Source: Verrucomicrobia bacterium UBA1211
GTDB lineage: Bacteria; Verrucomicrobiota; Kiritimatiellia; RFP12; UBA1067
NCBI GenBank assembly: GCA_002309585.1
Contig: DBXN01000137.1
Location: forward strand, 1 to 15,439
Direction: 5' to 3'
DNA: 15,439 nucleotides
In this document: in pieces, positions 765 to 15,336 of the stretch
Numbering within the stretch: the first letter of the stretch is position 1
Layout of the letters: the number at the start of each line of letters is the position of its first letter
The notes under the pieces: model-generated
What the model saw: the letters and a program-made list of their open reading frames with translations, nothing else
The model's database searches: none
What the model was told of the DNA's origin: nothing
Made by a program: the position numbers and the translations under genes

Positions 765-1919
765 TCATTGCCCGAAGCGCTGCTGGTTGAACTGGTCATA
801 CTGTTTGATCATCGCGGGGGTGACGGAGGAAGGAATGACCTTCACCGCATTCTCCAAATCGGAAACGAGGACCATGGGATCATCCCCCGTCTCCACCCCC
901 CGTCTAAAGGCGGCGAGCCGCGCCTTGCGGACGATACCGACGATATCGCTGCCGGTATAGCCGTCCAGACGCTCCGCCCACACCGAATGGTCGATCTGCG
1001 GTTCGCAGGCGACACCCTTGAACGAACGCTCCAGCATACCCAGACGCGCCTCTCGGTCGGGAAGGCCGATATACAACTTCTCATCGAACCGGCCGGTACG
1101 GAAAACCGCCTCGTCAATCGCCCAAGGTTTGTTGGTCGCCCCGAGGATCAGCAGGATATTGTCGCTCTCCCGGAAACCGCCGACATCGGAGAGAAACTGC
1201 GTCACGATGCGGTTGTCCACCACGGAGGAGCTGGCGGTACGGCGCGGCAGCAGCCCGTCGATCTCGTCCAGAAAGAGAACCGCGACGGGACGCGAAGCCG
1301 CCGTCTTCAGCAGACGGCTCAAGTTCTGCTCGCTCTCGCCGTGCCACTTGGAACGCAACTGCGCGCCGGAGGCGTAGAAGAACGGCGCGGCGATCTCATG
1401 GGCGATGGCCTTGCCGAACATGGTCTTGCCGTTTCCCGGAGGCCCGTAGAGGATCACGCCTCCGCCCGGCTTCAGTTTCATCGCCTTCGCCTTCTCGGGT
1501 TCGCGCATCGGATAGATGATCATCTCCCGGATCGCGGCCTTGGCCTGGGTCATCCCGGCGATGTCGTCAAAGGTCACATCCGGAATCTCAGCAACTTCGA
1601 ATGACTCCCCACCGTTCTCCCCGCCGGCATCCGTCTGAGGCGGGTTGCTGGCCGAAGCGGACTGCGGTCCGCCACCATGCGCGGTGGCGTTATTCCGCTT
1701 CGGCAGTTTCGCGGTTGCGAGCTTCTCGGCGATCTCCAGCCATCCTTCCGCCGTTGTCACATAACTGGCGGCGACCGGTCCCGTCGTCTGCTTCGCCAGC
1801 GCGAAGCAGAACTCCGCCGCCTTGGCGGCATGCAACCGGGCGGCGGGGGCATCACCCGCCTGGATGGCGGCTTCGCACGCCTTCTCATGCTCCGTTTTTT
1901 TATCCGAAAGAAAACTCAT
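765..1919 (-). CDS. AAA+ ATPase of the Vps4/katanin/spastin-like type with an MIT-like N-terminal three-helix bundle
   Basis: Walker A GPPGNGKT, Walker B LFLDEID, second region of homology ATNKPWAIDEAVFRTGRFD. The C-terminal helix IPSSVTPAMIKQYDQFNQQRFGQ resembles the Vps4 C-terminus (..RPSV..DLLK..KFTEDFGQ). The N-terminal ~75 aa is predicted helical and MIT-like. Located 9 bp downstream of the peptidase gene. Confidence 0.85.
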   Translation of the reverse strand: MSFLSDKKTEHEKACEAAIQAGDAPAARLHAAKAAEFCFALAKQTTGPVAASYVTTAEGWLEIAEKLATAKLPKRNNATAHGGGPQSASASNPPQTDAGGENGGESFEVAEIPDVTFDDIAGMTQAKAAIREMIIYPMREPEKAKAMKLKPGGGVILYGPPGNGKTMFGKAIAHEIAAPFFYASGAQLRSKWHGESEQNLSRLLKTAASRPVAVLFLDEIDGLLPRRTASSSVVDNRIVTQFLSDVGGFRESDNILLILGATNKPWAIDEAVFRTGRFDEKLYIGLPDREARLGMLERSFKGVACEPQIDHSVWAERLDGYTGSDIVGIVRKARLAAFRRGVETGDDPMVLVSDLENAVKVIPSSVTPAMIKQYDQFNQQRFGQ

Positions 1920-1928
1920 GGCAGATTC

Positions 1929-3059
1929 CTATTCATGACGGTCCGACAGATCGACCCCGATCGTCTTGAGCAACGCCAAAATCTCCCCCATGCCGATCGC
2001 TTCGGCGGCGGAGGGATTGGCCTGAATAAAGTTGAGGAGCCGTTCGATCGAATGCGGATGGGTTGTCGCGGCCACTCCGCGGATAGACTCGAAAACCGCC
2101 AGCGCAAGTTCCCAGATGATCGTCCCGAGCCCCAGCGTCTCCCGGTATTCGCTGGCGCTCACGACCGAGGAGGCGAACGAATCGGCCTCCCGTTCATGGT
2201 TACGGCTGATCTCGTCATTGAGAGCGGATCCGCAACAGTGCCCCAACGCGAGATGGCCGAATTCGTGGGCCAACACACCGATGACTGTCCCGCAGGCGAG
2301 TTCGACAGTCTTCGTCTTCCACTCCTCAACGGAGAGTACGCCGTTGAGATGACAACTGTTCGCGAAGGTGGCGGCGAGTTCCGATGTCAGGCGTGTACCG
2401 TTCCGCTGAAAGTGCTCCACCATCGCGGCGATCACCCGCTGGAAGGGGACAATCCCGACCCGACCCCCCCACGCCGGATCGTCAACGGCCATTTTCCAGC
2501 CGGTATACGCCGCGGCCATCAGCATGGCGTAACGGACAGCGCCGGAAAAGAGGCAGATCGTGGGGAAGCCCTCAAGCGGATCCATCCGCGCGTAGGCGTT
2601 GACCTGGGCGTGATCCAAAAAACCGCCCAACTCCTTCGAGCGTTCCAGCGAGGTCTCGATGAACTTCAGCTGGAGCCGGGGAACCAATGCCGCATACTGG
2701 CTATTGCTGACGACCGATGGCGAGGAACAGACCATCTCCATCAGTCCTTTGACGAGCTGGGCGTTGAAGGTCCAGACATCCCCGCAAACATCGGGGAAAG
2801 GCGACGGCGCAGAAACCGCCGGCAGGGCAGACACGCCCTCCCCCCGGAACGCGGGAACATCGCCATTTCCGGCACCGTAGTTGGGAAGCGCCTGGCCGAC
2901 GCCACCCGACACCCCGATCCCGGCGCTCCGGCTCTCCGGTCCCTGACCCATGCGCCGCCCAAGATCCTGCTGGCGTTGCGCAAGCCGCTGCTCCAAATCC
3001 CGTTGCCGGTCAGCCAACCGTTTGTTGATGCCGTCCAATGCTGACATAACGTTGCTCAC
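1929..3059 (-). CDS. HExxH zinc-metallopeptidase-like protein (ImmA/IrrE M78-like or M48-like catalytic motif) with an N-terminal coiled-coil/low-complexity region
   Basis: Motif LAHEFGHLALGH, then 14 aa, then NHEREADSFA (an HExxH followed by an ExxA(D/N)xFA third-ligand motif). The track start at 3059 is a GTG that overlaps the upstream stop as GTGA; an in-frame ATG lies at 3045-3047. No signal peptide. Confidence 0.7.
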   Translation of the reverse strand: MSNVMSALDGINKRLADRQRDLEQRLAQRQQDLGRRMGQGPESRSAGIGVSGGVGQALPNYGAGNGDVPAFRGEGVSALPAVSAPSPFPDVCGDVWTFNAQLVKGLMEMVCSSPSVVSNSQYAALVPRLQLKFIETSLERSKELGGFLDHAQVNAYARMDPLEGFPTICLFSGAVRYAMLMAAAYTGWKMAVDDPAWGGRVGIVPFQRVIAAMVEHFQRNGTRLTSELAATFANSCHLNGVLSVEEWKTKTVELACGTVIGVLAHEFGHLALGHCCGSALNDEISRNHEREADSFASSVVSASEYRETLGLGTIIWELALAVFESIRGVAATTHPHSIERLLNFIQANPSAAEAIGMGEILALLKTIGVDLSDRHE

Positions 3060-3694
3060 TTTCCGCCAAGAAGATCTTTCACCCGCTGCTGTCCGGCGGC
3101 GATCCGGTCATCAATGGCCTGGCCGGCCGAGGCGGGCGCCGCCGCGCCGCCGATCTCCGCCGCGACCTGCTGTTCCAGCTCCGACGCCATATCATCGAGC
3201 GACGGGATGTGGTCCTGAAGCGCGCCGTTCGCGCCCGCCATCTCATTCTCGTACATCCGGTTCCAGAAACGGTCGGCGTTCACCTGCTCGCCCAGCATCT
3301 CCTGGGCGGTCCCGAAGACATCCTCGACCCGTTCCGGATCGATCCGGATGATCGCATTGATCTGGCCCAGCGCCTCGGCGAACTGGTTGTCGGACTGCGC
3401 GACCTCCATCTTCGTCAGATACTGCTCGAAGACCCAGCGTTTCTGCTCCAGCTTCATCGCCAGCACCTGCGCCGCGCGAGCCGCGGTCAGCGCACGGTTG
3501 GCCGCCGCCTTCTCGCCGCTCTTCAGCGCCTCGCGCGCCTTCTCCCAACTCTCCTTCGCCTCTTTCTCCAACCGCTTCTGACGGTCGATCACATCCTGCT
3601 TGGCGTTCTCGGCGTCCCGGAACGCATGACGGCGCTCACGCCGCTCCAGACGGCGGCGGGCGGCGGGAAACATGAAATATTTTAAGAATGACAT
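3056..3694 (-). CDS. ESCRT-III/Snf7-like protein (PspA/Vipp1/ESCRT-III superfamily)
   Basis: 212 aa with a basic N-terminus and an acidic C-terminus. The segment IDRQKRLEKEAKESWEKAREALKSGEKAAANRALTAARAAQ follows the CHMP alpha1-alpha2 pattern (LDRExxKLE..IKKAxKxGN..A). The C-terminal amphipathic helix IDDRIAAGQQRVKDLLGGK looks MIM1-like. A strong SD (AAGGAG) lies 6 nt upstream of ATG 3694. Confidence 0.7.
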   Translation of the reverse strand: MSFLKYFMFPAARRRLERRERRHAFRDAENAKQDVIDRQKRLEKEAKESWEKAREALKSGEKAAANRALTAARAAQVLAMKLEQKRWVFEQYLTKMEVAQSDNQFAEALGQINAIIRIDPERVEDVFGTAQEMLGEQVNADRFWNRMYENEMAGANGALQDHIPSLDDMASELEQQVAAEIGGAAAPASAGQAIDDRIAAGQQRVKDLLGGK

Positions 3695-3732: not shown

Positions 3733-4653
3733 TCAGAAATCGGCCAACGGATCGGCGGGGACAGAAGGTTCCCCGGGCCCTTTCTCCGCCTCCGACGGCT
3801 CCGTCAAAGGCACATCCGGAAGCTCGTCCCCAAACGCGGCCAACGCATCGCTGAAGGATCCGTCATCTTCCCGTTCGTGGCGAACGCCGGCTTTGTCGAG
3901 ATCGCCGATCGCCCCGTCGATGTCATCGGCGGTATCGGCGGCATCCTCAACCTCATCCGTCAGTTTATCGATACCCGCCTCGCTGATACCCTTGAGGTTC
4001 ATCGCCACCAGCTCGTTCATGCGGCCCTTCACCTTGGTCAGTACCGTCTCGTTCTTCAGGTAGGCGGCCATCTGACGTTCCAGCGACTGGTATTCGGCGA
4101 GCGCGCTCTTCAACTCCATCTCCAGAATCTTCTTCCGGGCGGGCGGCGCCGACTGATAGAGCTTCTTCTTGGCGACAATCAACCGGTAAAGCTCATCATA
4201 GCGGCGCGCCACCGGCTCGCGTCGAGCCCGATTCTCCTCGATCTGCGCCTCAATCGTCCGCATCGCCTCCTCGGGATCGCGAATCCCGGCGAGCCGTTTC
4301 GCGAGACTGCCCGCCCCTTGCCCGAGCTTCACCGCGAACTCCCCGATCTGTTTGAGGATCGACGCTTTCTTCGCGGCCGGCAGTTTCGCCGCCGCATTCG
4401 GATCCACTGTCTGGCCCGCTTCGTTTCCATCAATCATTTTCAATTCCTCCGTCTTCTCATGAACGCGACTCTCCGGGCTCAACATCCCGCCGGATTTCCA
4501 ACCGTGTGCCGGACACCGCCGGTTACCATTATGCCAGTGAAAGGCGCAGAAGACACTTCCGCACCCTTCACTCTCACACCGACCGGCGACCGCGTACCGA
4601 TTGGGCAGGACGCGGCCGCAGACCGAACAGACTTGTGGCTCAGAACCGGCCAT
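3733..4653 (-). CDS. Zinc-ribbon / Snf7 (ESCRT-III) fusion protein
   Basis: N-terminal zinc ribbon CSVCG..C.SEGCG..C..H...C.H. The core ARKKILEMELKSALAEYQSLERQMAAYLKNETVLTKVKG...VAMNLKGISEAGIDKLTDEVEDAADTADDIDGAIGDLD aligns with the CHMP4/Snf7 alpha2-alpha4 pattern (KNKRAALQALKRKKRYEKQL...KAMK..DIDKVDELMQDI.DQQE). The C-terminal tail ELPDVPLTEP...PSVP is MIM2-like. SD GAGGTG; the stop of the upstream gene is 1 nt away. Confidence 0.75.
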   Translation of the reverse strand: MAGSEPQVCSVCGRVLPNRYAVAGRCESEGCGSVFCAFHWHNGNRRCPAHGWKSGGMLSPESRVHEKTEELKMIDGNEAGQTVDPNAAAKLPAAKKASILKQIGEFAVKLGQGAGSLAKRLAGIRDPEEAMRTIEAQIEENRARREPVARRYDELYRLIVAKKKLYQSAPPARKKILEMELKSALAEYQSLERQMAAYLKNETVLTKVKGRMNELVAMNLKGISEAGIDKLTDEVEDAADTADDIDGAIGDLDKAGVRHEREDDGSFSDALAAFGDELPDVPLTEPSEAEKGPGEPSVPADPLADF

Positions 4654-4654
4654 C

Positions 4655-5764
4655 TCACCTCACACGCGTGGACGCTTTGATGAACATCACAACCAGCGCC
4701 AGCGCGGCCAGAATGGCCAGCGGCACCACCACCGCCAAAACCGGTTTCGCGCGGAGCGCAGGGAAAAGGGTGCAGATCCGCTCCCACCACCCGTACTCCG
4801 GCGTGTAGGGTTCGGAGATGCAGATCGTGTCGCTCCAGAGCTGTTCGCGCGTGGAGGCCTTTTCGATGCAGGCCTGGATCTCGGCCGTCAGCGTATACTT
4901 CTTTTCGGTCGGAAGCGTCGATACGGGCGTCACCGACAAATCCCGGAGCGATCCGATCAGCAGGGCATCCGCCTGGTCGGGCTTGTCACGGAGCGCGAGC
5001 CGAGCCTCGCCCGGCGTGGCGATGTCGAGATTGACCGTCGTCAGGTCTGTACGGGCAACGGCGTCCCGCACGATATCGGCGGCATAATGGTCCCGATCGC
5101 CCGCGAAGGGCAGGAAGGCGACCCGTTTCACACCCGCCAGTTTCGGCGAACCTTTAATCGAGGCGATGATGGCCTCACGGAGTTTCCCCTGCATGATGTT
5201 CCGCAGCGAGACGGGGATGTCGGTCAACCCTTTCTCCGAGGCGGAGGCATCGGGAATATAGTACCGCTTGGCGAAGATACCGCCCCAGAGATGGCGCTTT
5301 TCCGCGATGGAGGTCGCATGCAGCTCGATCTCAAAGAAGACACACCGCTCGTTGCGCGAGGTATTCCGGATGAATGCGGAGAGGAGAACCTGCGCCGACT
5401 TCAGTTTTCCGAATCGGTCCACCGTGGCGGGATCCAGAATGTCCTCTTTGCGGGCATCCCAGGTGATCTCCTTGAGAATCTCGTTCCACAGCGGATCCTC
5501 CTTACCCTCGACGCAGGTCTTGCCAGCGCGGGTCAACGCGATCTTCAACTGCCCCGCGATCCACCCGTCCGTATCGCCGGCGACCGGAAGGATCGCCACG
5601 GCGGCGGCCGCCGGGATCCCCGCCGTTTTCAAGGCCGCCTCGGCATCCTGAACCGCGCCCTGCACCGCCTGCCTGAAATGCTCATCGACAGGAACCGTCT
5701 GCGCCGCAGCCATCCACGCGACCGCCGCAACCGCCATCCATATCCACCGTTTTTTCATCGTCAT
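4655..5764 (-). CDS. Exported protein with two tandem CsgG/LpoB-like (TolB-N-like) modules and a C-terminal transmembrane anchor
   Basis: Signal peptide MTMKKRWIWMAVAAVAWMAAAQ (start at 5764 or 5758 chosen over the track's 5812; SD AAGGAGG directly upstream). Modules AILPVAGDTDGWIAGQLKIALTRAGKTCV...ILKEITWDARKEDILDPATVDRFGKLKSAQVLLSA and VAFLPFAGDRDHYAADIVRDAVARTDLTTVNLD...ALLIGSL match the CsgG-family pattern. C-terminal hydrophobic helix PVLAVVVPLAILAALALVVMFI. Paralog of 5788..6972. Confidence 0.65.
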   Translation of the reverse strand: MTMKKRWIWMAVAAVAWMAAAQTVPVDEHFRQAVQGAVQDAEAALKTAGIPAAAAVAILPVAGDTDGWIAGQLKIALTRAGKTCVEGKEDPLWNEILKEITWDARKEDILDPATVDRFGKLKSAQVLLSAFIRNTSRNERCVFFEIELHATSIAEKRHLWGGIFAKRYYIPDASASEKGLTDIPVSLRNIMQGKLREAIIASIKGSPKLAGVKRVAFLPFAGDRDHYAADIVRDAVARTDLTTVNLDIATPGEARLALRDKPDQADALLIGSLRDLSVTPVSTLPTEKKYTLTAEIQACIEKASTREQLWSDTICISEPYTPEYGWWERICTLFPALRAKPVLAVVVPLAILAALALVVMFIKASTRVR

Positions 5765-5787
5765 CTCTCCCTCCTTTTCCAGAAAAC

Positions 5788-6972
5788 TCATTTGACGTAA
5801 CCGAGATCCCATTCGGGATGTTTGACCATCAGCGTGTTCAGAAAACCGTCCGAGAATTGTTCCGCATCAAAAACGATCCGGAACGTGAACGTTCCCGTCT
5901 TCGCATCCTGGCGGATCAGCCGCGCCGAGCGCACGCCCTTTTCCGCATTCACCGTCTGGCAGAATTCGGCCTGCAACTTCAACTCATCCGCCGACACCAC
6001 CTTCTCACGAAGCTTCAGCTCAACCGTCGAAACCTTCAACCCGACCTGTTCCGGCGTGAAAGAGGCTTTCACCCACTCGCCCGCCTCGGCGGTCAGCGCG
6101 TTCGCCAGATTCTTCTCCGCGGCGGCCTCGCCCAACCCGCGCGCGCCACTCTTCGTCACCGTCTTCTCAGCGAGCGTACGGGGATTGCCTCCCAAGATCC
6201 GGGTCTTCAGCGAGAGGGAACCGGTCAGTTTGTACCACTCGCCCGTGCGGTCAAACACCTCGCGGGACGCGGAGACTGTAACCTCGACATCGGGAGGGAA
6301 CGGGCTGTCCACGACATAACCCGCCTTGGCCAATGCGTTGCGGATGGCTGACGCGGCATCATCGATCACAACCGCCGCATTTCCCTTCTCGCAACGGACC
6401 GCAACCCGGATCCGGGAAGGATCCGCCATACCCTGCGCCGTCTCACCGATCGTCTTGATCGGCGCGAATTTACCGTCGATCACATTGGCGCCCCACACAT
6501 ACTGCTTGGTCTTGATGGCATAGGCCAACAGATTCAGTTCCGCCACCGTCTCCTTGGGACCGTTCTTGACGATCTCAACGGCGCTTTCGAGGAGGATCTG
6601 CGTGGACTTCAGCTCACCCAACGTGTCGATCGTCGCCGGATCGACGCTCCTCAGGATCGCCTGGCGCTCGTCCCATTTGATCTCGGAGAGAATCCGCTTG
6701 AACCGCGCGTCCTTCTCCTCGTCATTGGCGGTCACGCACGTCTTTCCGGCGCGGGTCAGCGCCTGGATCAGAAGACCCTCGAAATAACCTTCCTGATCAC
6801 CCTTGACCGGAAGGACCGTGATCGCCTTCCCGTCCAACACGGAAACGGACCGGATCTCCGACTCCACCGTCCCGGCGAGTTGCCGTAACGCCGCGCGCTC
6901 CTTTTGGTCAAACGCCAGCAGCGTCAACGGGGCGAGAAAAACCAGCATCAACCCTTTTGCCATTGCCTTCAT
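5788..6972 (-). CDS. Exported protein with CsgG/LpoB-like modules (paralog of 4655..5764)
   Basis: Signal peptide MKAMAKGLMLVFLAPLTLLA. Modules ITVLPVKGDQEGYFEGLLIQALTRAGKTCV...FKRILSEIKWDERQAILRSVDPATIDTLGELKSTQILLESAV are near-parallel to the downstream paralog. The ATG abuts the stop of the upstream lipoprotein gene (TAAATG). Confidence 0.65.
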   Translation of the reverse strand: MKAMAKGLMLVFLAPLTLLAFDQKERAALRQLAGTVESEIRSVSVLDGKAITVLPVKGDQEGYFEGLLIQALTRAGKTCVTANDEEKDARFKRILSEIKWDERQAILRSVDPATIDTLGELKSTQILLESAVEIVKNGPKETVAELNLLAYAIKTKQYVWGANVIDGKFAPIKTIGETAQGMADPSRIRVAVRCEKGNAAVVIDDAASAIRNALAKAGYVVDSPFPPDVEVTVSASREVFDRTGEWYKLTGSLSLKTRILGGNPRTLAEKTVTKSGARGLGEAAAEKNLANALTAEAGEWVKASFTPEQVGLKVSTVELKLREKVVSADELKLQAEFCQTVNAEKGVRSARLIRQDAKTGTFTFRIVFDAEQFSDGFLNTLMVKHPEWDLGYVK

Positions 6973-7554
6973 TTATTTCCTTCCTTTCACGTTTTGATCC
7001 AACCAATCCGCAATCGCGCAGGCCAAAGGCGCAACCAAGACCTTCTCTGCATCGGCGCGGCCCAATTTGCGGGGCCCCTGCACGACAAAACGTTTGTCTA
7101 CCGTCTCTGTCCCGTCCGCAGCGGCAAACGCGATCCGTGCGTCAACCTGCCCATCGCAAACGAACCACTCGTCCAGCCTGGCCTTCACGGAGGAGGACGC
7201 GGAGAGAGTCAACCCGGCATAGGGCACGTTTCCGTCAATGAAACGATACCCGCGTTTCGTCAGCTCCTCACGGAGCCGGACGGCGATATCCGCCGCAAAT
7301 GTCGCTCCCGTCGCCCCGCTCGCCGCCACGCTGACCGTCACGGTATCGGTCACGGGTTTCGGCTGTTCCTGAACCGGCGCGGACTCGGCGACCGGCGCGG
7401 GAACGGGTTCAGCAACCGGCGCGGGCGCTTGAACCGCCGGAGACTCCTGGACCACCACAACCTCCACCGGTATCGGCCGCTGCGTGACGCATCCCGAAAA
7501 CACAACCGCCGAAAACGCGGCTACCGCCGTCAATAGACCATTCACCTTCTTCAT
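6973..7554 (-). CDS. Lipoprotein with a Pro/Ala-rich linker and a C-terminal alpha/beta domain
   Basis: Start chosen at MKKVNGLLTAVAAFSAVVFSGC (lipobox VFSGC; ATG 7552-7554; AAGGA ~10 nt upstream) rather than the track's 7761. Linker PAVQAPAPVAEPVPAPVAESAPVQEQPKP. The C-terminal segment FAADIAVRLREELTKRGYRFIDG resembles the CsgG/LpoB-like module of its neighbours. Confidence 0.65.
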   Translation of the reverse strand: MKKVNGLLTAVAAFSAVVFSGCVTQRPIPVEVVVVQESPAVQAPAPVAEPVPAPVAESAPVQEQPKPVTDTVTVSVAASGATGATFAADIAVRLREELTKRGYRFIDGNVPYAGLTLSASSSVKARLDEWFVCDGQVDARIAFAAADGTETVDKRFVVQGPRKLGRADAEKVLVAPLACAIADWLDQNVKGRK

Positions 7555-7570
7555 TTCATAATCCTTTCGT

Positions 7571-8989
7571 TTACTCTTTACGCTGATGATAACGTCCGGC
7601 TCTGTACGGAACGCCAGCCACCTCAACCGACATTCCCGGTACGATCTTTCGCCCAGAAACCAAGAAACACTTTCCATTCCAAACCCAGTCACATCCCCCG
7701 CACGGAACTTTTCGGCTGACAATGGCGACAACCTGTTCGTCCAACCCGTCATCACGGACAAGCGTGAAACCGGAAATCAGGCCGTCGTCACAGATGAAAA
7801 GTTCCAACGTGAATCCCACAACCCCCTCCGGATAATTCGGAGCCTTCGCGCCAAAAGTCAGGTGTGAGACACCCCGGGGAATAACCATCCCGCCCGGGCC
7901 GACCTCATTCCCCTCCACCTGGACACCCCAGGTGGACGGCTCCCCTTCCATTCCGTCAAAGATCCGCAGTCTTCTCCCATCAGAGACCGTGAGCCTGAAG
8001 TGGCGGCGGGAAAGACACATCGATCGGCTCTTATCCATCTGATGACATTCACGGTCAAACACCCGGACCACGTAATCACAGGTGTCGTGACGGCCGCAGA
8101 CCATTGTCTCGTCGGAGCCCAACGCCCACAGTTGGATCATTTTCCCCGCACCCGTCAACGTCAGTCGGGGGGCGCCCCCCTCAAGGTCGACCGCCAACTG
8201 ATGCGTCACCGCCCGCGACTGCTCAACCCGCGGATCCCGCAGATTGATCCCGCTCACGGCCGGCGAATGGTACTGGAGCAAACTCGCGCCCGCCCCGTTC
8301 ACTTCCACCTTCGTATCGATAGTGATGCTGTTTGGGCTGGCGTGATCCAGCACCCGAACGGGGAAAACCGCGCTGAACACATCCGGATCATCCATCCCGT
8401 CCCGTACGCAGAAGAAGCGCACCGTCAACTCAACGGTTCCCGCAACCTTCGGACAGACATTCAGAGGGAAAGTCAACCGCTCCGTGGTGGGCCGGTAACC
8501 CAGCGGATGGCGCTGCACCTCATTCGGCCCGTTGAAAAGCGCCACCGTCACATCGGCATAGAGATCCTCCACCGCCTGGAACACAATCTTGACCGGCGAT
8601 GACCACCCCTTCCACATGGTTTCTGGGAACGTCACCGTCGCACCGAAGGGCATTCCATCCGGGATTTCCACCGGCGGCGCCACCGACGCGCCGAAGGGCG
8701 GATACCCCGTCATCCCGCCGAACGGTGCGATCGGATCAAGCGGCCGCAACGGCGGCAGGTTCGCGGGAGCCGCCGGGTTGAACCCGGAGGGCGCTCCCGC
8801 AGGAGGAGCCGCGGGTTGCGGACACGCGCGTTGCGCGACATCCGGCACGGGCGCGGGGGCCGGCGCGGGCACAGCGACGGGCTCCGGCTCGCAGAGCCGC
8901 CCCGCCGCCGGGCCGCAATTCTCGCAAAAGGTGCCGACCTCGCCCAGCAACCCGCAAAGGGGACATTTGACTTCCGCCATGCGAACCAT
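7571..8989 (-). CDS. Zinc-ribbon / Pro-rich linker / beta-rich middle domain / C-terminal FHA domain protein
   Basis: N-terminus CPLCG...CENCG. FHA-like region GRHDTCDYVV..SRRHFRLTVSDGRRLRIFDGMEGEPSTWGVQVEGNEV (GR...SRxH...D..StnGt.vng pattern). The SD AGGAAGGA abuts ATG 8989, so the in-frame ATG at 8980 (MAEVKCPLCG) may be the true start. Confidence 0.75.
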   Translation of the reverse strand: MVRMAEVKCPLCGLLGEVGTFCENCGPAAGRLCEPEPVAVPAPAPAPVPDVAQRACPQPAAPPAGAPSGFNPAAPANLPPLRPLDPIAPFGGMTGYPPFGASVAPPVEIPDGMPFGATVTFPETMWKGWSSPVKIVFQAVEDLYADVTVALFNGPNEVQRHPLGYRPTTERLTFPLNVCPKVAGTVELTVRFFCVRDGMDDPDVFSAVFPVRVLDHASPNSITIDTKVEVNGAGASLLQYHSPAVSGINLRDPRVEQSRAVTHQLAVDLEGGAPRLTLTGAGKMIQLWALGSDETMVCGRHDTCDYVVRVFDRECHQMDKSRSMCLSRRHFRLTVSDGRRLRIFDGMEGEPSTWGVQVEGNEVGPGGMVIPRGVSHLTFGAKAPNYPEGVVGFTLELFICDDGLISGFTLVRDDGLDEQVVAIVSRKVPCGGCDWVWNGKCFLVSGRKIVPGMSVEVAGVPYRAGRYHQRKE

Positions 8990-8996
8990 ATCCTTC

Positions 8997-11198
8997 CTAC
9001 TTCACGAGGTTGATTGAAGGCGGCGGAGGAGGCGGGGGCGTCTGCGTCTGATTGATCACGTTCACCGGACGCTCCACCGCGCGGGCGGCGATATCATGAA
9101 GCATCCGCATCGTCTCCTCATCATGGGCGACCCGCTGGTCAGTCATGCGCTTCATCTCTTCGACAAGCTTGTCATGCTGGGCGACCTCGGCCGCGGCTTG
9201 CGCGGAAGCCGCCTGGGCTTCCGCCTGAGCCTTGGCCGCGAGAGCCTGCGCGGCAGTCGCCGACCGTCCCGCCTCCCGGGCCAGAAGCTGCTCCGCCGTC
9301 ATCCCCTTCTCCGCCTCAAGCCGCGCCTTCTCCAACTCCTGCTCCTGCTGGAACCGCGCCAGTTCCATCAGTTGCCGCCGCTGTTCCGGGTCCTTCTCCA
9401 GCGCAGCCATCTCCACCGGGCTGAGGCCCTTAATCACCGTTGCAAGGCTCTCCCGTTCCTTGGCGTCCAACTCCTGAAGCCGCGCGAGATTCTTGAGCTG
9501 GTTCTCCATCCCCTCCTGTGCGATCTCCTGGGCGGTCCGGGTTTCATAGTTTTTGACGTCGATCCCGGTTTTCGCGACCGTCGCGTCGGCTTGGGCATCC
9601 TTGATCCGATCGGAACGGTGGATGTCTCCGATGCCCGACTGGTGCTCAGCGTCTTTCCGTTCTTCATCCCGCAACACGTCACTGACCGCGCTCTTCCCCT
9701 GCGCGGTGGCGAGCGACTCGGCGATCTCATGTTCCCGGATACGGCTGTCCTTCTCGAACCGATGGTCAAGCTCGCGGCGTTCCCGCTCAAACTGGTGCTC
9801 AAGCTCCGCAAATTCACGATCATGTTCCCGCGACAGCTTCGCCAGCTCCTCCTCCGCTCCCTTGGCATCGATTTGCCCATCGGCGGCCATCCGCGCGATC
9901 TTCAGCTCGACCTCGCGGGAGAGATCGGAAAGTCCCTTCTCCTGCGCCAGTTGCTTGATGTACTCCTCGGAATCCTGGGCGCGCCGGGCCGCCTCGCGCT
10001 TCCGCCGCTCCTCCAGATCCGCCTGATCCCGTTCGGAATCCGCCGTAATGACCAGTTCACGGTAACGCTCCGCCTCGGACTCCGCGCGCTGCGTCAGCTT
10101 ATGCTCGCGACTCTCGCGCTCCTCGTCAAGGATGTGCTCATGCAGTTTCTTATCATATTCCAGCTGACGGCGCTTTGCGTCCAGCTCGCCGTACCGCTTA
10201 CGCATCTCCTCGTATTCGGCGCTGACGAAATCGACATATCCCACCCGCACCAGCTCAAGGCCGGAGCGTTTCAGCAGATCCTTGAGCGCGCGCCCGATCG
10301 CATCCTCAAACCGGGGTCTGCGTTCCGGATCTTTCACCAGATCTTCGATCTTCGACTGCAGGCAGAGATCCTTCACCGCAGCCGAAGCCTCGGACAGCAG
10401 CCACGTCCCGATATCTTCCGCGAAAAGTCGGTTCGCCCGGTCCTGCCCCGTGCCGTCCGTCCCGGCATCCGGCTGCCCCGCGCCGCCCGACGCCTGAACA
10501 CCCCGTTCCGATTTCATCACATTGGCGAGGAACGCGTTCGCCTCACCCGGATTGAAACGGATCGTCACCTCCGCGATGACCTTGACCGGAAGCTCCTCGG
10601 CAGTCCTCATTCCCGGGAAATCCACCCGAAAAACGCAGTCGCCTGAATCGACCATCACCACACTGTGCGGCGGCGGATTGCCGAACCAGTTGATGGTCCG
10701 GAGCGTCCCCTCCGGGTTGTGCCGCCCAGGCCCCAAAATCGCCGCCTTCTTCCCGGCATCCAGAAGGATCGCCACCGTCCCCTCCTGGATTTTGAGTCCG
10801 CCCTTGGCGATGCCCGTCACGTCGGAAAGCTCAATCCGCTGGGCGAAAACGCCCGGATCGCGGTCCCAGACCCCGCCGGCGAGATTCGGCCGCTCTTCGG
10901 GATGAAGCGGATAGTTGCAGTGCGGGCAGAAGCGGGAATCGTTCCCGACCCATGCGTGGCAGGAGGGGCACTTCACCCAGCCGTTCGGCGCCCCGTGTCC
11001 GCATTTGGAGCAGAACCGCGCCTTCTTGGAGACCGAATGCCCGCAAATCCCCCAGCCCTTCTGGGCGAGCACGGATTCCTTGTTCCATCGCGACGCGCCA
11101 AGCAGCAGCGTCTTCGCCTCATCCAGCTTCGCACCCGTGAGCGCCTGCCCCGTCTTCAAATCAACAATCGCCTCGCACGTATCATGAAAGAGTCCCAT
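8997..11198 (-). CDS. Double zinc-ribbon / SPFH (band-7) domain / long flotillin-like coiled-coil protein with a poly-Pro C-terminus
   Basis: N-terminus CSKCG..CPSCH..CPHC. SPFH-like segments IQEGTVAILLDAGKKAAILGPGRHNP...VDFPGMRTAEELPVKVIAEVTIRFNPGE and RALKDLLKRSGLELVRVGYVDFVSAEYEEMRK. Then ~400 aa of charged coiled coil with flotillin-like EA repeats (AKAQAEAQAASAQAAAEVAQ), ending TPPPPPPPS. SD AGGAGAA upstream. Confidence 0.7.
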   Translation of the reverse strand: MGLFHDTCEAIVDLKTGQALTGAKLDEAKTLLLGASRWNKESVLAQKGWGICGHSVSKKARFCSKCGHGAPNGWVKCPSCHAWVGNDSRFCPHCNYPLHPEERPNLAGGVWDRDPGVFAQRIELSDVTGIAKGGLKIQEGTVAILLDAGKKAAILGPGRHNPEGTLRTINWFGNPPPHSVVMVDSGDCVFRVDFPGMRTAEELPVKVIAEVTIRFNPGEANAFLANVMKSERGVQASGGAGQPDAGTDGTGQDRANRLFAEDIGTWLLSEASAAVKDLCLQSKIEDLVKDPERRPRFEDAIGRALKDLLKRSGLELVRVGYVDFVSAEYEEMRKRYGELDAKRRQLEYDKKLHEHILDEERESREHKLTQRAESEAERYRELVITADSERDQADLEERRKREAARRAQDSEEYIKQLAQEKGLSDLSREVELKIARMAADGQIDAKGAEEELAKLSREHDREFAELEHQFERERRELDHRFEKDSRIREHEIAESLATAQGKSAVSDVLRDEERKDAEHQSGIGDIHRSDRIKDAQADATVAKTGIDVKNYETRTAQEIAQEGMENQLKNLARLQELDAKERESLATVIKGLSPVEMAALEKDPEQRRQLMELARFQQEQELEKARLEAEKGMTAEQLLAREAGRSATAAQALAAKAQAEAQAASAQAAAEVAQHDKLVEEMKRMTDQRVAHDEETMRMLHDIAARAVERPVNVINQTQTPPPPPPPSINLVK

Positions 11199-11212: not shown

Positions 11213-11569
11213 TTACTGATGTTGGTCATTTCCCGTTAAAGTGTGTTCCGTGCACTTCCGCACGCCCCGTCGCGTCCAGCAGTCGAAGCAGATCGGTTTC
11301 CCGCATCCCTCCTCCGTGCATCCCTGCCGAAGCGACCCGTTCGACCGGTAGAACGTCCCGCATACGCTACAGACGCCCCCTTCGGCCGCGGTCCGTTTAC
11401 TCCGTTCCAAATACCCGTCAAGATCGCTCTTCGCCACACGATACAGCTTACCCAGCCGCGCCGCCGGCAGCTCCCCGCTCCGGACCAGCCTGTAAATGAG
11501 CTGATAGGTGACACCCAGCATCTCCGCCACCTCCTCAAGGCTCATGTATCCCGTCTCTTTCCCATCCAT
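11213..11569 (-). CDS. Excisionase/MerR-type HTH DNA-binding protein with a C-terminal zinc ribbon (putative regulator of the cluster)
   Basis: MSLEEVAEMLGVTYQLIYRLVRSGELPAARLGKLYRVAKSDLDGYL matches the excisionase-family HTH. C-terminal zinc ribbon CSVCG...GCTEEGCG..C..C...C. Perfect SD AGGAGG lies 5 nt upstream of ATG 11569. It is the first gene after a promoter-like region. Confidence 0.8.
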   Translation of the reverse strand: MDGKETGYMSLEEVAEMLGVTYQLIYRLVRSGELPAARLGKLYRVAKSDLDGYLERSKRTAAEGGVCSVCGTFYRSNGSLRQGCTEEGCGKPICFDCWTRRGVRKCTEHTLTGNDQHQ

Positions 11570-11587
11570 CGCATCCTCCTATCGGTC

Positions 11588-11613
11588 CTTTGATGGTTAT
11601 GACTTTATCAAAG
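11588..11613. promoter_or_regulatory. Candidate operator: 7-bp perfect inverted repeat ctttgat-N12-atcaaag overlapping the -10 region of the HTH gene
   Basis: ctttgat at 11588-11594 and atcaaag at 11607-11613 (8/8 except one position if extended). It sits between the predicted -10 and the transcript start of the HTH gene. Confidence 0.45.
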
Positions 11614-11668
11614 TTACTTTCTGATGTCAATTAGGTATTTTATTTTATTTTTGTTTATTTTTGTTTTA
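11602..11668 (-). promoter_or_regulatory. Sigma70-like promoter for the HTH-led operon: A/T-rich UP-like element, -35 TTGACA, 17-bp spacer, -10 TAAAGT
   Basis: On the minus strand, TTGACA is the reverse complement of 11625-11630. A 17-nt spacer (rc 11608-11624) leads to TAAAGT (rc 11602-11607). The upstream 11636-11668 is an A/T-tract block (ttgtttattt repeats), unusual in a ~65% GC sequence. The leader is ~25 nt to the SD/ATG. Confidence 0.5.
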
Positions 11669-11672
11669 CAAC

Positions 11673-11699
11673 CTTGCAACCCTTCAAGGGGGTTGCAAG
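11673..11699. repeat. REP-like palindrome cttgcaaccc-ttcaagg-gggttgcaag (10-bp perfect stem)
   Basis: Read directly from the sequence. It shares the GCAACCCC/GGGGTTGC core with the palindrome at 12855-12881 on the other side of the RAYT gene. No U-tract follows on either strand. Confidence 0.55.
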
Positions 11700-11703
11700 C
11701 AGG

Positions 11704-12708
11704 TCACACCGAGTGTTCCATATACACAACCCCCTCACCACCCCCTCGCCCAACCTGGTTACCACCCCCTTGAGGGGTTGTAACATACACCGTCCGCCCC
11801 CCCTCATTCCCCCGTGCAATCGCGGCCGCGATGTAATTGAGCCCCAACAGCTCGCCGCGCCGCGGCGGCTCATCCGGATCGGCCATCCGCGAAAGGACCA
11901 GCAACCGTTTCTGAGCGAAGAGTTGCGGCTCGACCCCATGCGGCCGGTATGCCAAATCCAAAAAAGTCGGCGCGAGCCGGATCATCGGTACGCCATCCGT
12001 TTCCGACAACGTCTTGAACACCATTCGCTCGCCCGGCGAGAAGAAGGTGGAAATGTAGAGATACCCCTTCTCCACCGCGCCGCGGCGGCACACCGCGACC
12101 ACCCGCGGTAACGCCGCCTCCGGCACCTTCCGCGAAATGCGGAGCGACACCAGACGTCCCTTTTCCAGCAGGTCACAGTTCCCCACCGCGCGCCAAAGAT
12201 CATCCTCCCCCGCCTCCGGCACGGCAAATGGCTCGACCACATGCATCAGTGATCGGTCCCCATGCATCAACCACCATTTGAGCGGGTTGTTTCGAATGTA
12301 GGCATCCACCGCACGGTTCATGCGTTCCGATGTGCAGATGAGATCGTGGTAGCCCGCCTCCCAAATGCCCGGCGCACGCCCGGCAATGTGGTAGTGGGAA
12401 AACTGCTTGAAACGACCGACGAACGCGCCGATCTTCTTCACGGCATCAGCGCACCCCGCCGGCCAAGTGAAACGGAGATGCGCATGGTCGGGCATGACCG
12501 TCCAGGCACGAAGGGTGATGAATCCCGCGAAATGACCCGCTGCTTCGAGAAGGTCACGCTTCACGATCCCGCCCGCCTCCGAAAGCGCCACGCCATCGTG
12601 ATCCACACGGCCAAACAGCGGGCGGCGCGGTTCGAGGCAGATCGTCACAAACATCGATCCCCCGCGCGCATAGTCATACCCGCTGAATCTCCGGTGTGTC
12701 TTGTGCAT
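11704..12708 (-). CDS. REP-associated tyrosine transposase (RAYT / IS200-like Y1 HuH transposase) with a C-terminal extension
   Basis: MHKTHRRFSGYDYARGGSMFVTICLEPRRPLF (RAYT N-terminal signature), HuH motif MPDHAHLRF, catalytic Tyr motif AVDAYIRNNPLKW. Start placed at ATG 12706-12708. The 59 codons upstream of it in the track ORF are encoded by the tandem repeat array and are judged non-coding. The 3' boundary is uncertain; a core of ~165 aa is followed by ~170 aa of unknown function. Confidence 0.8.
   Translation of the reverse strand: MHKTHRRFSGYDYARGGSMFVTICLEPRRPLFGRVDHDGVALSEAGGIVKRDLLEAAGHFAGFITLRAWTVMPDHAHLRFTWPAGCADAVKKIGAFVGRFKQFSHYHIAGRAPGIWEAGYHDLICTSERMNRAVDAYIRNNPLKWWLMHGDRSLMHVVEPFAVPEAGEDDLWRAVGNCDLLEKGRLVSLRISRKVPEAALPRVVAVCRRGAVEKGYLYISTFFSPGERMVFKTLSETDGVPMIRLAPTFLDLAYRPHGVEPQLFAQKRLLVLSRMADPDEPPRRGELLGLNYIAAAIARGNEGGRTVYVTTPQGGGNQVGRGGGEGVVYMEHSV
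11765..11780. repeat. Small palindrome cccccttgaggggttg, related in reverse orientation to the 11673-11699 REP-like element
   Basis: cccct-tg-agggg with a flanking ggttg. It approximates the reverse complement of the first palindrome (caacccccttgaagggttg). It lies inside the 3' end of the RAYT ORF. Confidence 0.35.
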
Positions 12709-12740
12709 CACCCACGCGCCCTTTTCCCACTGCCGTTGTT

Positions 12741-12881
12741 CCAACCCGCGCGCACCCCCCCGCGCCCAACCCGCGCGCAACCCCCTCGCACCCAACCCGC
12801 GCGCAACCCCCTCGCGCCCAACCTGCGCGCAACCCCCTCGCGGGGCCCAACCTGCGCGCAACCCCCTCGCGGGGTTGCGCG
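12741..12881. repeat. Tandem array of about five 26-bp REP-like units (cccaaccYgcgcgcaaccccctcgcR). The last copy forms an 11-bp perfect-stem palindrome (12855-12881).
   Basis: Copies at 12741-12764 (degenerate), 12765-12790, 12791-12816, 12817-12845 and 12846-12881. Last copy cgcgcaacccc-ctcgc-ggggttgcgcg. The array begins 1 nt after the kinase stop codon (12882-12884). There are no unique spacers, so it is not CRISPR. Confidence 0.7.
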
Positions 12882-15328: not shown

Positions 15329-15336
15329 TTTCAAAC

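Follow-up and report, generated by a model that had tools for sequence, protein, structure and literature searches.

A two-zinc finger shared by a helix-turn-helix regulator and a coiled-coil protein in a bacterial operon with Snf7-like, AAA ATPase and SPFH genes

Gene content of the operon

The window, i.e. the whole stretch of DNA analysed here (15,439 nucleotides of contig DBXN01000137.1 from Verrucomicrobia bacterium UBA1211), carries an operon on its minus strand, and all coordinates given for genes and features below refer to this strand. Gene 1 of the operon (11213..11569) encodes a regulator of 118 amino acids, which consists of an HTH_17 domain (residues 8-57, 11399..11548; Pfam HTH_17, E 2.8e-16) and a C-terminal zinc-binding module. 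The N-terminal half of this protein is a clear HTH_17 domain as in the small DNA binders of the HTH_17/excisionase family (Xis, BldC), and its scores place it within this family (60 bits vs. a cut-off of 27 for Pfam HTH_17, 61.6 vs. 28.8 for NCBIfam TIGR01764). To our knowledge, none of the characterised Xis/BldC-type members carries a C-terminal zinc finger. The upstream region (11570..11700) contains a sigma-70-like promoter with TTGACA as -35 element, a 17-nt spacer and TAAAGT as -10 element. Before this promoter, we found AT-rich repeats (11636-11666; period 10, 3.1 copies, 90% matches), which are a candidate operator or UP element, and in eight other loci repeats of the TAAACAAA type lie 5' of a TTGACA that precedes the regulator gene. 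Some members of the HTH_17 family bind phased AT-rich direct repeats as head-to-tail multimers. An Rfam scan of the whole window did not return any RNA family.

The regulator gene is followed by a gene for an SPFH/Band-7 protein (8997..11198; Pfam DZR 3.5e-7, Zn_Ribbon_1 2.5e-8, Band_7 4e-7), which combines an N-terminal double zinc ribbon with a long C-terminal coiled coil. The FHA-domain protein encoded next (7571..8989; Pfam FHA E 0.0029, below cut-off) starts with a single-zinc ribbon (CPLCG...CENCG), and the precomputed matches of its ortholog in one related locus (L037), to Zn_Ribbon_1 and to FHA, are weak. Three further genes (4655-5812, 5788-6972 and about 6973-7761; together 4655..7761) encode products with hydrophobic N-termini, which are likely to be exported or to be lipoproteins. 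Pfam gave no significant match and no known domains for these three proteins, and their genes are conserved across many related loci.

The second carrier of the zinc-binding module is a zinc-finger/coiled-coil protein of 306 amino acids (3733..4653). A ribosome-binding site resembling AGGTGA lies upstream of its start ATG at 4653, which comes 2 nt after the stop codon of the preceding gene. The public annotation shortens this protein and thereby hides the module on this contig. Its homologs are mostly about 290-340 amino acids long and cover 90-100% of the query including the N-terminus. In the AlphaFold model (mean pLDDT 82) the N-terminal module (pLDDT 95-97) is followed by a disordered linker, a long helical hairpin and more helices, and helices were modelled at residues 127-168 and 171-221. 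The first-pass annotation had described this protein as a Snf7 fusion, and our searches did not bear this out. Pfam Snf7 was absent from the window protein and touched one of 44 family members (E 0.022), a PDB profile search reached Snf7 at E 0.22, and fold searches did not separate its fold from generic helical hairpins. When the profile of its family was aligned (hhalign) with that of the adjacent Snf7-family gene, the probability was 0.3%, and paralogy of the two genes is out at the sequence level. Alignment with the Snf7-like families of other phyla gave 0.2%, and neither the coiled-coil-210 nor the Snf7-200 families there showed any similarity. Weak Pfam EAD9 matches were seen on nine of the 44 family members (best E 0.009).

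The Snf7-family (ESCRT-III-like) gene itself (3056..3694, 212 amino acids) lies directly downstream of the zinc-finger/coiled-coil gene. The window protein matched Pfam Snf7 below the cut-off (E 4.8e-5; 23.5 bits vs. 27.3). All of its 14 orthologs matched Snf7 (best E 2.2e-8), and its family aligned with the Snf7-like 200-aa family of other phyla (hhalign 74% probability, E 3e-5), one member of which has a precomputed Pfam Snf7 match that is not flagged as weak. These data provide good family-level support for the Snf7 identity of the 212-aa protein, with the window sequence itself below cut-off. Its neighbour, the 306-aa carrier, is not demonstrably a Snf7-family protein.

At the operon end, we found a putative metallopeptidase gene (1929..3059), which is Lit/U49- or M48-like (Pfam Peptidase_U49 3.9e-5, M48 2.7e-4; NCBIfam Lit 1.1e-6, below cut-off) and is present in some related loci, and the gene of a classic single-domain AAA ATPase (765..1919; Pfam AAA E 9e-34 plus AAA_lid_3) whose first 105 or so residues form a helical domain. 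The closest solved relatives of this ATPase are VAT/Cdc48/p97 (E 1e-102), and its NCBIfam scores for CDC48 (203 bits vs. 803) and CdvC (190 vs. 650) remained far under the cut-offs. Pfam detected neither MIT nor Vps4_C in the window ATPase, and it matches (2e-63) an ATPase of locus L040, in which Vps4_C and a weak MIT are found. From these similarities the enzyme appears to resemble CdvC/Vps4 and Cdc48.

The two-zinc module and its fold class

According to the first-pass annotation, the C-terminus of the regulator and the N-terminus of the coiled-coil protein share the same module, and this proposal held. The segments compared there encode the peptides CSVCGTFYRSNGSLRQGCTEEGCGKPICFDCW (window:11276-11371, regulator) and VCSVCGRVLPNRYAVAGRCESEGCGSVFCAFHWHN (window:4527-4632, 306-aa protein), and BLASTP aligned the two copies with 18/48 identities and one gap (E 2e-7). 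The similarity extends beyond these segments and includes a fourth ligand pair (RKCTEH vs. RRCPAH). The complete module spans 11243..11371 in the regulator (C67-x2-C70-x13-C84-x4-C89-x4-C94-x2-C97-x8-C106-x2-H109) and 4504..4629 in the coiled-coil protein (C9-x2-C12-x13-C26-x4-C31-x4-C36-x2-H39-x7-C47-x2-H50), so that the common pattern of about 45 residues reads C-x2-C-x13-C-x4-C-x4-C-x2-[C/H]-x7/8-C-x2-H with eight ligands (seven Cys plus one His in the regulator, six plus two in the coiled-coil protein). The Smith-Waterman score of the two modules was 86, and this value was not reached in any of 2000 full shuffles (maximum 53) or in any of 2000 shuffles with all Cys/His residues fixed (maximum 85). 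The profile comparison proposed together with the original claim aligned the two family modules with 97.6% probability (E 3e-12). In a search of 1.84 billion representative proteins, the module profile retrieved about 173 clusters at E<=1e-3. This narrow yield marks the domain as rare, and we conclude from it that generic ribbons are not picked up by the profile; when the short profile was used for a word-index protein search, there were no matches. BLASTP, shuffle controls, profile-profile alignment and search yield all place the likeness well above that of generic CxxC...CxxC motifs and indicate that a single small domain is present here in two paralogous copies.

Identity between the two module subfamilies is about 30-38%, and their conserved non-ligand surfaces differ (TFYKSRDSLKQT vs. 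RELPNRYAVAGR). These differences make one shared binding surface unlikely, and identical binding of both modules to one partner is not implied. Both consensus modules carry a basic net charge (8 K/R vs. 5 D/E, and 5 K/R vs. 3 D/E plus histidines). We found 387 regulator homologs, and in the best 120 of them the module was kept in all 120. Among homologs of the 306-aa protein it was kept in 101 of 120, and in 44 homologs C9, C12, C26, C31, C36, C47 and H50 did not vary and the conservation of H39 and W40 was 90% or more.

The first-pass annotation had also counted four zinc-bearing proteins among ten gene products. In part, this count is correct since the SPFH and FHA proteins do begin with zinc ribbons (Pfam DZR/Zn_Ribbon_1 on the SPFH protein, C-x2-C-x9-C-x2-C in the FHA protein), but these ribbons are of a different, single-zinc type. 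Their Smith-Waterman scores against the modules were 27-45 only, compared with 86 for the two modules, and they were neither aligned with the modules nor hit by the module HMM, which rejects one module common to all four zinc-bearing proteins of the locus.

The name zinc ribbon, which had been given to the module itself, does not fit either. A ribbon binds one zinc through four ligands in two CxxC knuckles, which sit on a small beta sheet, whereas the module has eight conserved ligands in four pairs, of which pairs 2 and 4 are lost jointly, and on these grounds we rejected the label. Among 134 coiled-coil-type proteins, all four pairs were present in 127 and pairs 1+3 alone in six (two sequence types), while proteins with only pairs 1+2 or only pairs 3+4 were not found in this set. 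The Pfam ribbon models Zn_Ribbon_1 and DZR did not match the modules, though both match the SPFH protein. The interleaved ligand arrangement (1+3 / 2+4) is that of cross-brace binuclear treble-clef fingers, and it identifies the module as a member of the FYVE/RING/PHD class, in which pairs 1+3 are predicted to hold one zinc and pairs 2+4 the other. Both modules were modelled at pLDDT of about 90-97 with identical order of secondary structure elements.

The top structural matches of the module were FYVE domains, and it shares its fold class with these domains (Hrs/Vps27, EEA1, RUFY1) and with the FYVE-like fingers of rabphilin/RIM. However, the FYVE motifs WxxD, R(R/K)HHCR and RVC, with which phosphatidylinositol 3-phosphate is bound, are missing from both module consensus sequences, which places the module outside the FYVE family, its second pair is mostly C-x4-C and its last ligand is His. 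With the threshold relaxed to E 10, Pfam FYVE still left both window proteins unmatched, and one distant long HTH_17+module protein (P0281) gave a weak match (E 0.026, 15 bits vs. a cut-off of 27.8). A RING finger, for which C3HC4 or C3H2C3 would be expected, was rejected because of the Cys as fourth ligand, the gap of four residues between ligands 4 and 5 and the RING_2 score (17.6 bits vs. 27.3, with the consensus sequence only). The zf-CRD model scored 21-22 bits (cut-off 26.3) and B-box reached E 5, so that no family in the searched copies of Pfam and NCBIfam attained its cut-off with the finger. Literature searches on zf-CRD, PF17979, PF28219 and bacterial Vps4 returned nothing relevant. 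The FCxxHW motif of the coiled-coil-type module is reminiscent of FCxxHR in AN1 fingers, but spacing and last ligand pair differ from AN1. Prokaryotic binuclear treble clefs stand outside the ubiquitin context in bacteria and have been proposed as peptide-binding partners of membrane-associated proteins. The module belongs to the same structural class as these fingers (RING, B-box, AN1, LIM, ZF-UBP), of which Burroughs, Iyer and Aravind reportedly gave a survey in 2011. Taken together, the fold class is familiar, and the finger family, its mobility and its gene company are unfamiliar.

Gene pairing and distribution of the module

The first-pass annotation had made its claim dependent on conservation of the pairing in orthologous loci. 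We found both carrier genes in 13 of 25 related loci, and in 13 of the 14 loci where the 5' end of the SPFH gene is visible. The order regulator-then-SPFH with direct adjacency was seen in 13/13 loci and also in L037-L039. The two halves of the operon can come apart: the coiled-coil/Snf7/AAA half occurs without a regulator within 10 kb upstream in three loci (L001, L008, L020), and in two others (L037, L038) the regulator/SPFH/FHA half has none of the coiled-coil, Snf7 and AAA genes in a range of 10 kb. In five loci (L017, L021-L024) the coiled-coil protein carries a one-zinc derivative of the module. The regulator keeps its full module in three of them (L017, L021, L024), and no regulator was found in the other two (L022, L023), both of which end early upstream. 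The loop motif LPNR[YW]AVA is retained in the derivatives that miss one zinc site, and this retention, together with that of the module in the homologs, indicates purifying selection.

Among the matching clusters, the module is joined to HTH_17 in 38, the most frequent architecture (HTH_17+module), and to Ser/Thr kinases in 6; further fusion partners are two FHA domains and proteases of the CHAT, caspase and papain-like types. The module also occurs as tandem arrays with 2-5 copies. Repeatedly, and also in Anaerolineae, carrier genes stand beside Snf7-like, AAA-ATPase or SPFH genes. In locus L029, the gene of an FHA-FHA-module protein is followed by those of a lipoprotein-like product, a coiled-coil protein (216 aa), a Snf7-like protein (200 aa) and an AAA ATPase, which shares 37% identity with the window ATPase. 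Long HTH_17+module genes lie directly upstream of a cassette of 200-225-aa coiled-coil and AAA genes in all four informative contexts (L034, L036, L040, L041), and L040 additionally encodes a Pfam Snf7 protein and the ATPase with the Vps4_C and weak MIT matches mentioned above. The C-terminal parts of these long proteins were not matched by the coiled-coil HMM, which rejects the idea that they are regulator/coiled-coil fusions. HTH-less module proteins are encoded directly upstream of SPFH-DZR genes (L030/L031, L032/L033), and L026 has two kinase+module genes 1.7 kb apart. Since L029, L034, L036, L040 and L041 have a single module carrier each, two carriers are not a general requirement. This distribution fits a transferable adaptor that would link its carrier to Snf7-like/AAA/SPFH machinery.

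Possible functions of the shared finger

We favour, with somewhat less than even confidence, the reading that the module serves for docking: as an adaptor, it would connect the two carriers with a single assembly at the membrane and include the regulator in a feedback. The domain would plug its fusion partner into an SPFH / ESCRT-III-like / AAA assembly at the membrane, presumably by binding a protein, and candidate partners are the respective other copy of the module, the SPFH and Snf7-like proteins and the N-domain of the ATPase. The coiled-coil protein would be recruited to the assembly through its module, and the regulator would be held there or freed according to the assembly state. If, as we infer, the HTH protein regulates its own operon, this would close a feedback loop and operon transcription would track demand. 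PspF and PspA offer the same proposed logic, namely a transcription factor held by, or reporting on, a polymer from the ESCRT-III superfamily, and PspF is inhibited by bound PspA (PMC7619361). The first-pass annotation had drawn this parallel, and it can be kept for the logic only, since neither carrier belongs to those families. PspF is a sigma-54 AAA+ activator that is bound by PspA without a shared domain, whereas our regulator is an HTH_17 protein; Pfam Sigma54_activat and PspA_IM30 did not match any of the operon proteins, and the second module carrier has no detectable PspA or Snf7 relationship. The docking model would thus arrive at PspF/PspA-style logic from unrelated parts. Effector-associated/Death-like adaptors are mostly alpha-helical and act in NTPase-centred conflict systems. 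The module differs from them in being a zinc finger and in its link to Snf7-like/AAA/SPFH gene sets. They likewise place a small domain on two neighbours and on kinases and caspase/CHAT proteases, and the presence of one adaptor on two co-encoded proteins serves there as an argument for coupling in bacterial conflict systems (Kaur et al. 2020, PMC7159879).

Shared ancestry does not necessarily mean coupling, and it is conceivable, if somewhat unlikely, that the finger was drawn for separate local roles from a pool of domains frequent in these lineages and that the two copies never share a partner; in the regulator, for instance, it may multimerise or stabilise the small HTH_17 protein on repeated DNA sites. 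The low identity of the two subfamilies with their different conserved loop residues is what one would expect in this case, the separable operon halves and the presence of the commonest architecture, HTH_17+module, in loci without a second carrier point in the same direction, and the phased AT-rich direct repeats at the regulator promoter would suit multimeric binding. However, one operon keeps both carriers in nearly all informative loci (13/14), and the neighbourhood of carriers to Snf7-like/AAA or SPFH genes across architectures and phyla is hard to reconcile with a purely local structural role. We consider it improbable that the finger works as a FYVE-like lipid binder, which attaches its carrier to anionic membrane lipids, so that anchoring of the coiled-coil protein would occur through its N-terminus, the usual place of the ESCRT-III membrane-binding element, and the regulator would be membrane-held until release. 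The structural matches to FYVE domains, the weak Pfam FYVE match on the long HTH_17+module protein, the basic net charge and the N-terminal position in the coiled-coil protein are consistent with such binding, but the lipid-binding motifs of FYVE are missing, Pfam FYVE was silent on both window proteins, and fusions to soluble signalling enzymes suit a protein adaptor at least equally well.

The zinc-bound redox sensors RsrA and Hsp33 illustrate how the carriers could instead respond to a common chemical signal, a wording that is compatible with the 'common signal' of the first-pass annotation. Both modules would unfold together in the presence of oxidants or when their zinc is lost, and regulator activity and assembly of the coiled-coil protein would change in parallel. 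The cysteine-rich ligand sets and the envelope-associated functions of the operon make stress sensing plausible, and still we regard a thiol/zinc switch as very improbable: there is no specific sign of redox regulation, zinc fingers of the structural type with these ligand sets are usually inert, and one-zinc derivatives retain the loop between the ligands. This loop is as conserved as the ligands themselves, which indicates a binding surface.

A more far-reaching reading, which we regard as unlikely at present, sees the HTH_17+finger proteins as the dedicated winged-helix component of a widespread and essentially undescribed bacterial ESCRT-like machinery. This machinery would consist of Snf7-family subunits and a Vps4/CdvC-like AAA ATPase, in some lineages with SPFH, FHA and kinase partners. 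Candidates for it were seen in Kiritimatiellae and Lentisphaerae, and Anaerolineae also have these HTH_17+finger proteins. The finger would be its recruitment device, by analogy with FYVE, MIT-MIM or winged-helix contacts of archaeal/eukaryotic ESCRT, and the 'regulator' might act on the polymer as well as on DNA. In archaeal ESCRT variants, FHA, kinases and SPFH-zinc-ribbon-coiled-coil proteins surround an ESCRT-III plus Vps4-like core, and a winged-helix protein has been proposed to contact ESCRT-III (Makarova et al. 2024, PMC10936438). The parts list given in the passages on these variants matches that of the gene sets described here, but the variants are archaeal and those passages do not mention the two-zinc finger (PMC10936438). 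For bacteria, a 2025 review states that a Vps4-like ATPase appears to be absent (PMC7619361), and passages of the 2024 survey describe ESCRT components as not identifiable (PMC10936438). If true, a bacterial ESCRT-like machinery would contradict this claimed absence of Vps4-type ATPases and ESCRT components.

Our data also correct the public annotation, in which the truncated coiled-coil protein had concealed its module. The finger appears to be a mobile domain for docking that has not been described before, and in several phyla it is found repeatedly near such gene sets for membrane remodelling. It labels, and perhaps links physically, the components of sets that comprise Snf7-family proteins, Vps4/CdvC/Cdc48-like ATPases, SPFH scaffolds, FHA proteins and kinases. 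Being short and recognisable, it provides a handle to search for such systems, and it offers a testable idea of how their parts may be brought together and how their expression may be tuned.

A shared zinc-finger module in the window

All relevant genes of the window are located on the minus strand. The first gene of the operon (11213-11569) encodes the 118-aa regulator, in which residues 8-57 form an HTH_17/excisionase-type DNA-binding domain (Pfam E 2.8e-16; NCBIfam TIGR01764, 61.6 bits). The 306-aa protein (3733-4653) carries the module at its N-terminus. The first-pass annotation had aligned one cysteine-rich peptide from each of these proteins and we found both where it had placed them. 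When the two proteins were compared by BLASTP, we obtained 18 identities over 48 residues with one gap (E 2e-7). The local alignment score of the two copies (86) was reached by none of 2000 full shuffles and by none of 2000 shuffles in which every Cys and His was kept fixed. Against the two module segments, the zinc ribbons at the N-termini of the SPFH and FHA proteins scored only 27-45, and a six-frame scan of the window with a module HMM matched no proteins beyond the regulator and the 306-aa protein. Taken together, these data indicate that the shared module is real and that the similarity is not generic CxxC likeness.

The similarity extends past the originally aligned segment to a fourth ligand pair. 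In the regulator (window 11243-11371, minus strand) the ligands are C67, C70, C84, C89, C94, C97, C106 and H109, and in the 306-aa protein (4504-4629, minus strand) C9, C12, C26, C31, C36, H39, C47 and H50. The spacing C-x2-C-x13-C-x4-C-x4-C-x2-[C/H]-x8 or x7-C-x2-H is conserved in 118 of 120 regulator homologs and in 94 of 101 module-bearing homologs of the 306-aa protein. All four ligand pairs are present in 127 of 134 coiled-coil-type proteins. One of the 134 has lost the last His alone, and six, belonging to two sequence types, have kept pairs 1 and 3 and jointly lost pairs 2 and 4; retention of only pairs 1 and 2, or of only pairs 3 and 4, was found in none (0/134). This pattern of loss matches the prediction of an interleaved (cross-brace) two-zinc site. 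With eight ligands in four pairs, of which pairs 2 and 4 are lost together, the initial label of a zinc ribbon should be dropped. AlphaFold modelled the module with a pLDDT of 95-97 in the full 306-aa protein and of about 90 in a regulator fragment, and both models show short strands followed by two short helices in identical order. A Pfam scan of the module gave no family at cut-off; the nearest entry was zf-CRD (21-22 bits vs a cut-off of 26.3), which was matched by 37 of 44 family members, and there was a weak match to RING_2. The module is a new family in a known fold class. One homolog of the 306-aa protein (P0129) has a precomputed match to Pfam PF28219 and was unmatched in the Pfam copy searched here, which lacks this entry, so that a recent curated entry may exist.

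Separately built module alignments of the two protein families aligned with each other at 97.6% probability (profile-profile, E 3e-12). Besides the ligands, both subfamilies have a Gly following the second Cys, G-C ahead of the fourth ligand, [F/I]-C at the fifth, a Trp following the sixth and R-x-C ahead of the last pair. Each family has its own 13-residue loop between pairs 1 and 2, which is very well conserved within the family (TFYKSRDSLKQT in the regulators, RELPNRYAVAGR in the coiled-coil proteins). In 44 homologs of the 306-aa protein, L16 and P17 never vary, and N18, A21 and A23 are kept in 90% or more. Since even the one-zinc derivatives have retained this loop, it is probably the working surface of the module. 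Identical binding of one partner by both copies is improbable, given that the loop is not the same in the two subfamilies.

Module carriers and operon architecture

In the public annotation of this contig, the 306-aa coiled-coil protein begins at Met73 (P0121, 234 aa), which leaves the conserved zinc module unannotated. Most homologs measure about 290-340 aa and cover the N-terminus, and the ATG at 4653 is preceded by a ribosome-binding site and follows the stop codon of the gene before it at a distance of 2 nt. The same start-site error probably explains several other short homologs (about 230-260 aa). In the AlphaFold model of the 306-aa protein, a disordered linker is followed by a long hairpin (127-168 and 171-221) and more helices. 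This protein had been described as a Snf7 fusion and we suggest that this label be abandoned: only one of 44 family members matched Pfam Snf7 (E 0.022), the family had no profile similarity to the adjacent Snf7-family protein or to Snf7-like or coiled-coil families of other phyla, and a Foldseek search gave no significant match.

As judged from Pfam matches, the neighbouring 212-aa protein (3056-3694, minus strand) is well supported as a member of the Snf7 family at family level, and all of its orthologs (14/14) match Pfam Snf7 (best E 2.2e-8). The ATPase gene (765-1919, minus strand) encodes a protein with a helical N-domain and a single AAA domain of the classic type. It resembles Cdc48/VAT and CdvC to about the same degree and matches at 2e-63 an ATPase of locus L040 that has weak MIT and Vps4_C matches. 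A DPL[AS]DF motif is conserved at the C-terminus of close homologs of the coiled-coil protein (3733-3770, minus strand), and the Snf7-family protein has a conserved C-terminal helix, ...RVK.LL.GK (3056-3110, minus strand). By analogy to the MIM motifs of ESCRT-III, either could be a candidate docking motif for the N-domain of the ATPase. The last operon gene (1929-3059, minus strand) weakly resembles the Lit phage-exclusion peptidase (U49) and M48 metallopeptidases, with every match below its curated cut-off.

A Ser/Thr kinase gene lies on each side of the operon (1-527 and 12882-14153, minus strand), the former running off the window end, and the N-terminal regions of the two kinases are almost identical. 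These kinases and the FHA protein suggest regulation through phosphorylation. A 393-aa ORF (11704-12885, minus strand) with a repetitive Arg/Gly/Ala-rich N-terminus and no Pfam match lies between the operon and the upstream kinase, and a DUF4143/AAA_14 ATPase gene (14150-15334, minus strand) lies beyond that kinase.

The region 5' of the regulator gene (11570-11700, minus strand) is AT-rich in a window of about 62% G+C. It contains a sigma-70-like promoter site (TTGACA/17 nt/TAAAGT) preceded by phased AT-rich repeats with a 10-bp period (11636-11666). Repeats of the TAAACAAA type precede a TTGACA in eight other loci (e.g. L002 3031-3109, L006 1983, L017 2499, L021 4911), and the AT-rich tract is missing from the Lentisphaerae loci L013 and L014. 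Because the regulator gene comes first, downstream of promoter and phased repeats in a layout kept in these eight loci, the regulator probably controls its own operon.

Distribution of the module and conservation of the pairing

When species-representative genomes were scanned with the coiled-coil-protein alignment, we obtained 25 loci, all from Kiritimatiellae, Lentisphaerae/Victivallales or related PVC metagenome-assembled genomes; the window matches Kiritimatiellae records. The regulator was found in 13 of these loci, always directly upstream of the SPFH gene (13/13), and its module is intact in most of them. In the Lentisphaerae loci L013, L014, L016 and L018 pair 2 of the regulator has the simple CxxC form, and L018 has Cys in place of His as the last ligand. 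Several of the remaining loci end at contig or flank limits. The 5' end of the SPFH gene was visible in 14 loci and 13 of them have the regulator (exception L025), which indicates that the pairing is conserved in orthologous loci. The locus consists of two separable halves with exactly one module carrier in each: regulator/SPFH/FHA/exported proteins, and zinc-finger coiled-coil/Snf7/AAA (with the peptidase in some loci). L001, L008 and L020 have the second half, with no regulator in the 10 kb upstream. L037 and L038, obtained by working outward from regulators on long contigs, have the genes of the first half and lack coiled-coil, Snf7 and AAA genes within 10 kb.

A search of 1.84 billion representative proteins with the module profile yielded 173 clusters at E<=1e-3, of which 51 reached E<=1e-10. 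Among the 150 matches listed, 38 were HTH_17 fusions (many of 390-475 aa, eight with two modules), 37 were of the coiled-coil type and six were Ser/Thr kinases; 23 lacked the motif and resemble unrelated cysteine-rich repeat proteins. Pfam scans of further matches identified CHAT, caspase (C14) and papain-like (C1) proteases and a double-FHA protein as carriers, and some proteins hold 3-5 tandem modules. In L029, genes for an FHA-FHA-module protein, a lipoprotein-like protein, a 216-aa coiled-coil protein and a Snf7-like 200-aa protein occur with an AAA ATPase gene (37% identity to that of the window). In all four contexts with a visible downstream region (L034, L036, L040, L041), a long HTH_17+module gene is followed by a cassette of a 200-225-aa coiled-coil protein and an AAA ATPase, and L040 also encodes a Pfam Snf7 protein. 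One member of a cluster of such long HTH_17+module proteins is assigned by name to Anaerolineae. HTH-less module proteins are encoded directly upstream of SPFH-double-ribbon genes (L030/L031, L032/L033), and L026 has two kinase+module genes 1.7 kb apart.

Other proteins of L030/L031 and L032/L033 (a DZR-TPR protein, FGE-sulfatase proteins, a kinase, a caspase and a DUF4384 protein) carry shorter eight-ligand fingers of the type C-x2-C-x8-11-C-x2-C-x4-5-C-x2-H-x7-9-C-x2-C (L030 3302-3664, 8847-8957, 10325-10834, 13382-13504; L032 11669-11782, 13342-13458), which may be a related adaptor family.

Possible role of the module

The module is a mobile domain, found repeatedly on different parts of a single type of system. 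Where the same small domain occurs on co-encoded proteins and on many alternative carriers, such effector-associated domains have been called coupling adaptors (PMC7159879). For these reasons we favour a docking role, in which the module would tie both carriers to the same assembly and docking of the regulator would provide feedback on the operon. Our confidence in this reading falls short of even, because the loops differ, the halves are separable and some loci have a single carrier. The same observations fit shared ancestry of the two copies with no coupling between their carriers, which we consider rather unlikely given the recurrence of the module within one system kind. We regard FYVE-like lipid binding as improbable; the module has none of the FYVE lipid-binding motifs. 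A common redox or zinc signal to both modules, to which the shared ligands would lend themselves, appears very improbable beside strongly conserved loops that even one-zinc derivatives keep.

According to a phage-shock survey, Snf7 is mainly archaeal and eukaryotic, and Vps4-like ATPases were transferred to bacteria, where snf7 was displaced (PMC11237479). A 2025 review describes the Vps4-like ATPase as apparently absent from bacteria (PMC7619361), and a 2024 ESCRT survey reports no identifiable bacterial homologs (PMC10936438). This survey also describes archaeal ESCRT variants that include FHA, kinases and an SPFH protein with both a zinc ribbon and a coiled coil, and proposes a winged-helix protein as ancestral ESCRT partner (PMC10936438). 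Neither this finger nor these bacterial operons were described in the literature searched. Here, Snf7-family or Snf7-like genes are paired with classic AAA ATPases near CdvC/Cdc48 on bacterial contigs (window 765-3694, minus strand; L029, L034, L036, L040, L041). The pairings occur in PVC bacteria, with linked HTH_17+finger proteins in Anaerolineae too. According to recent reviews, bacteria lack such ATPases and ESCRT components. The system that carries the module brings together ESCRT-III-like proteins, a classic AAA ATPase, SPFH, FHA and kinases, and its gene context makes it plausible that the module may serve there as a shared adaptor with regulatory feedback.
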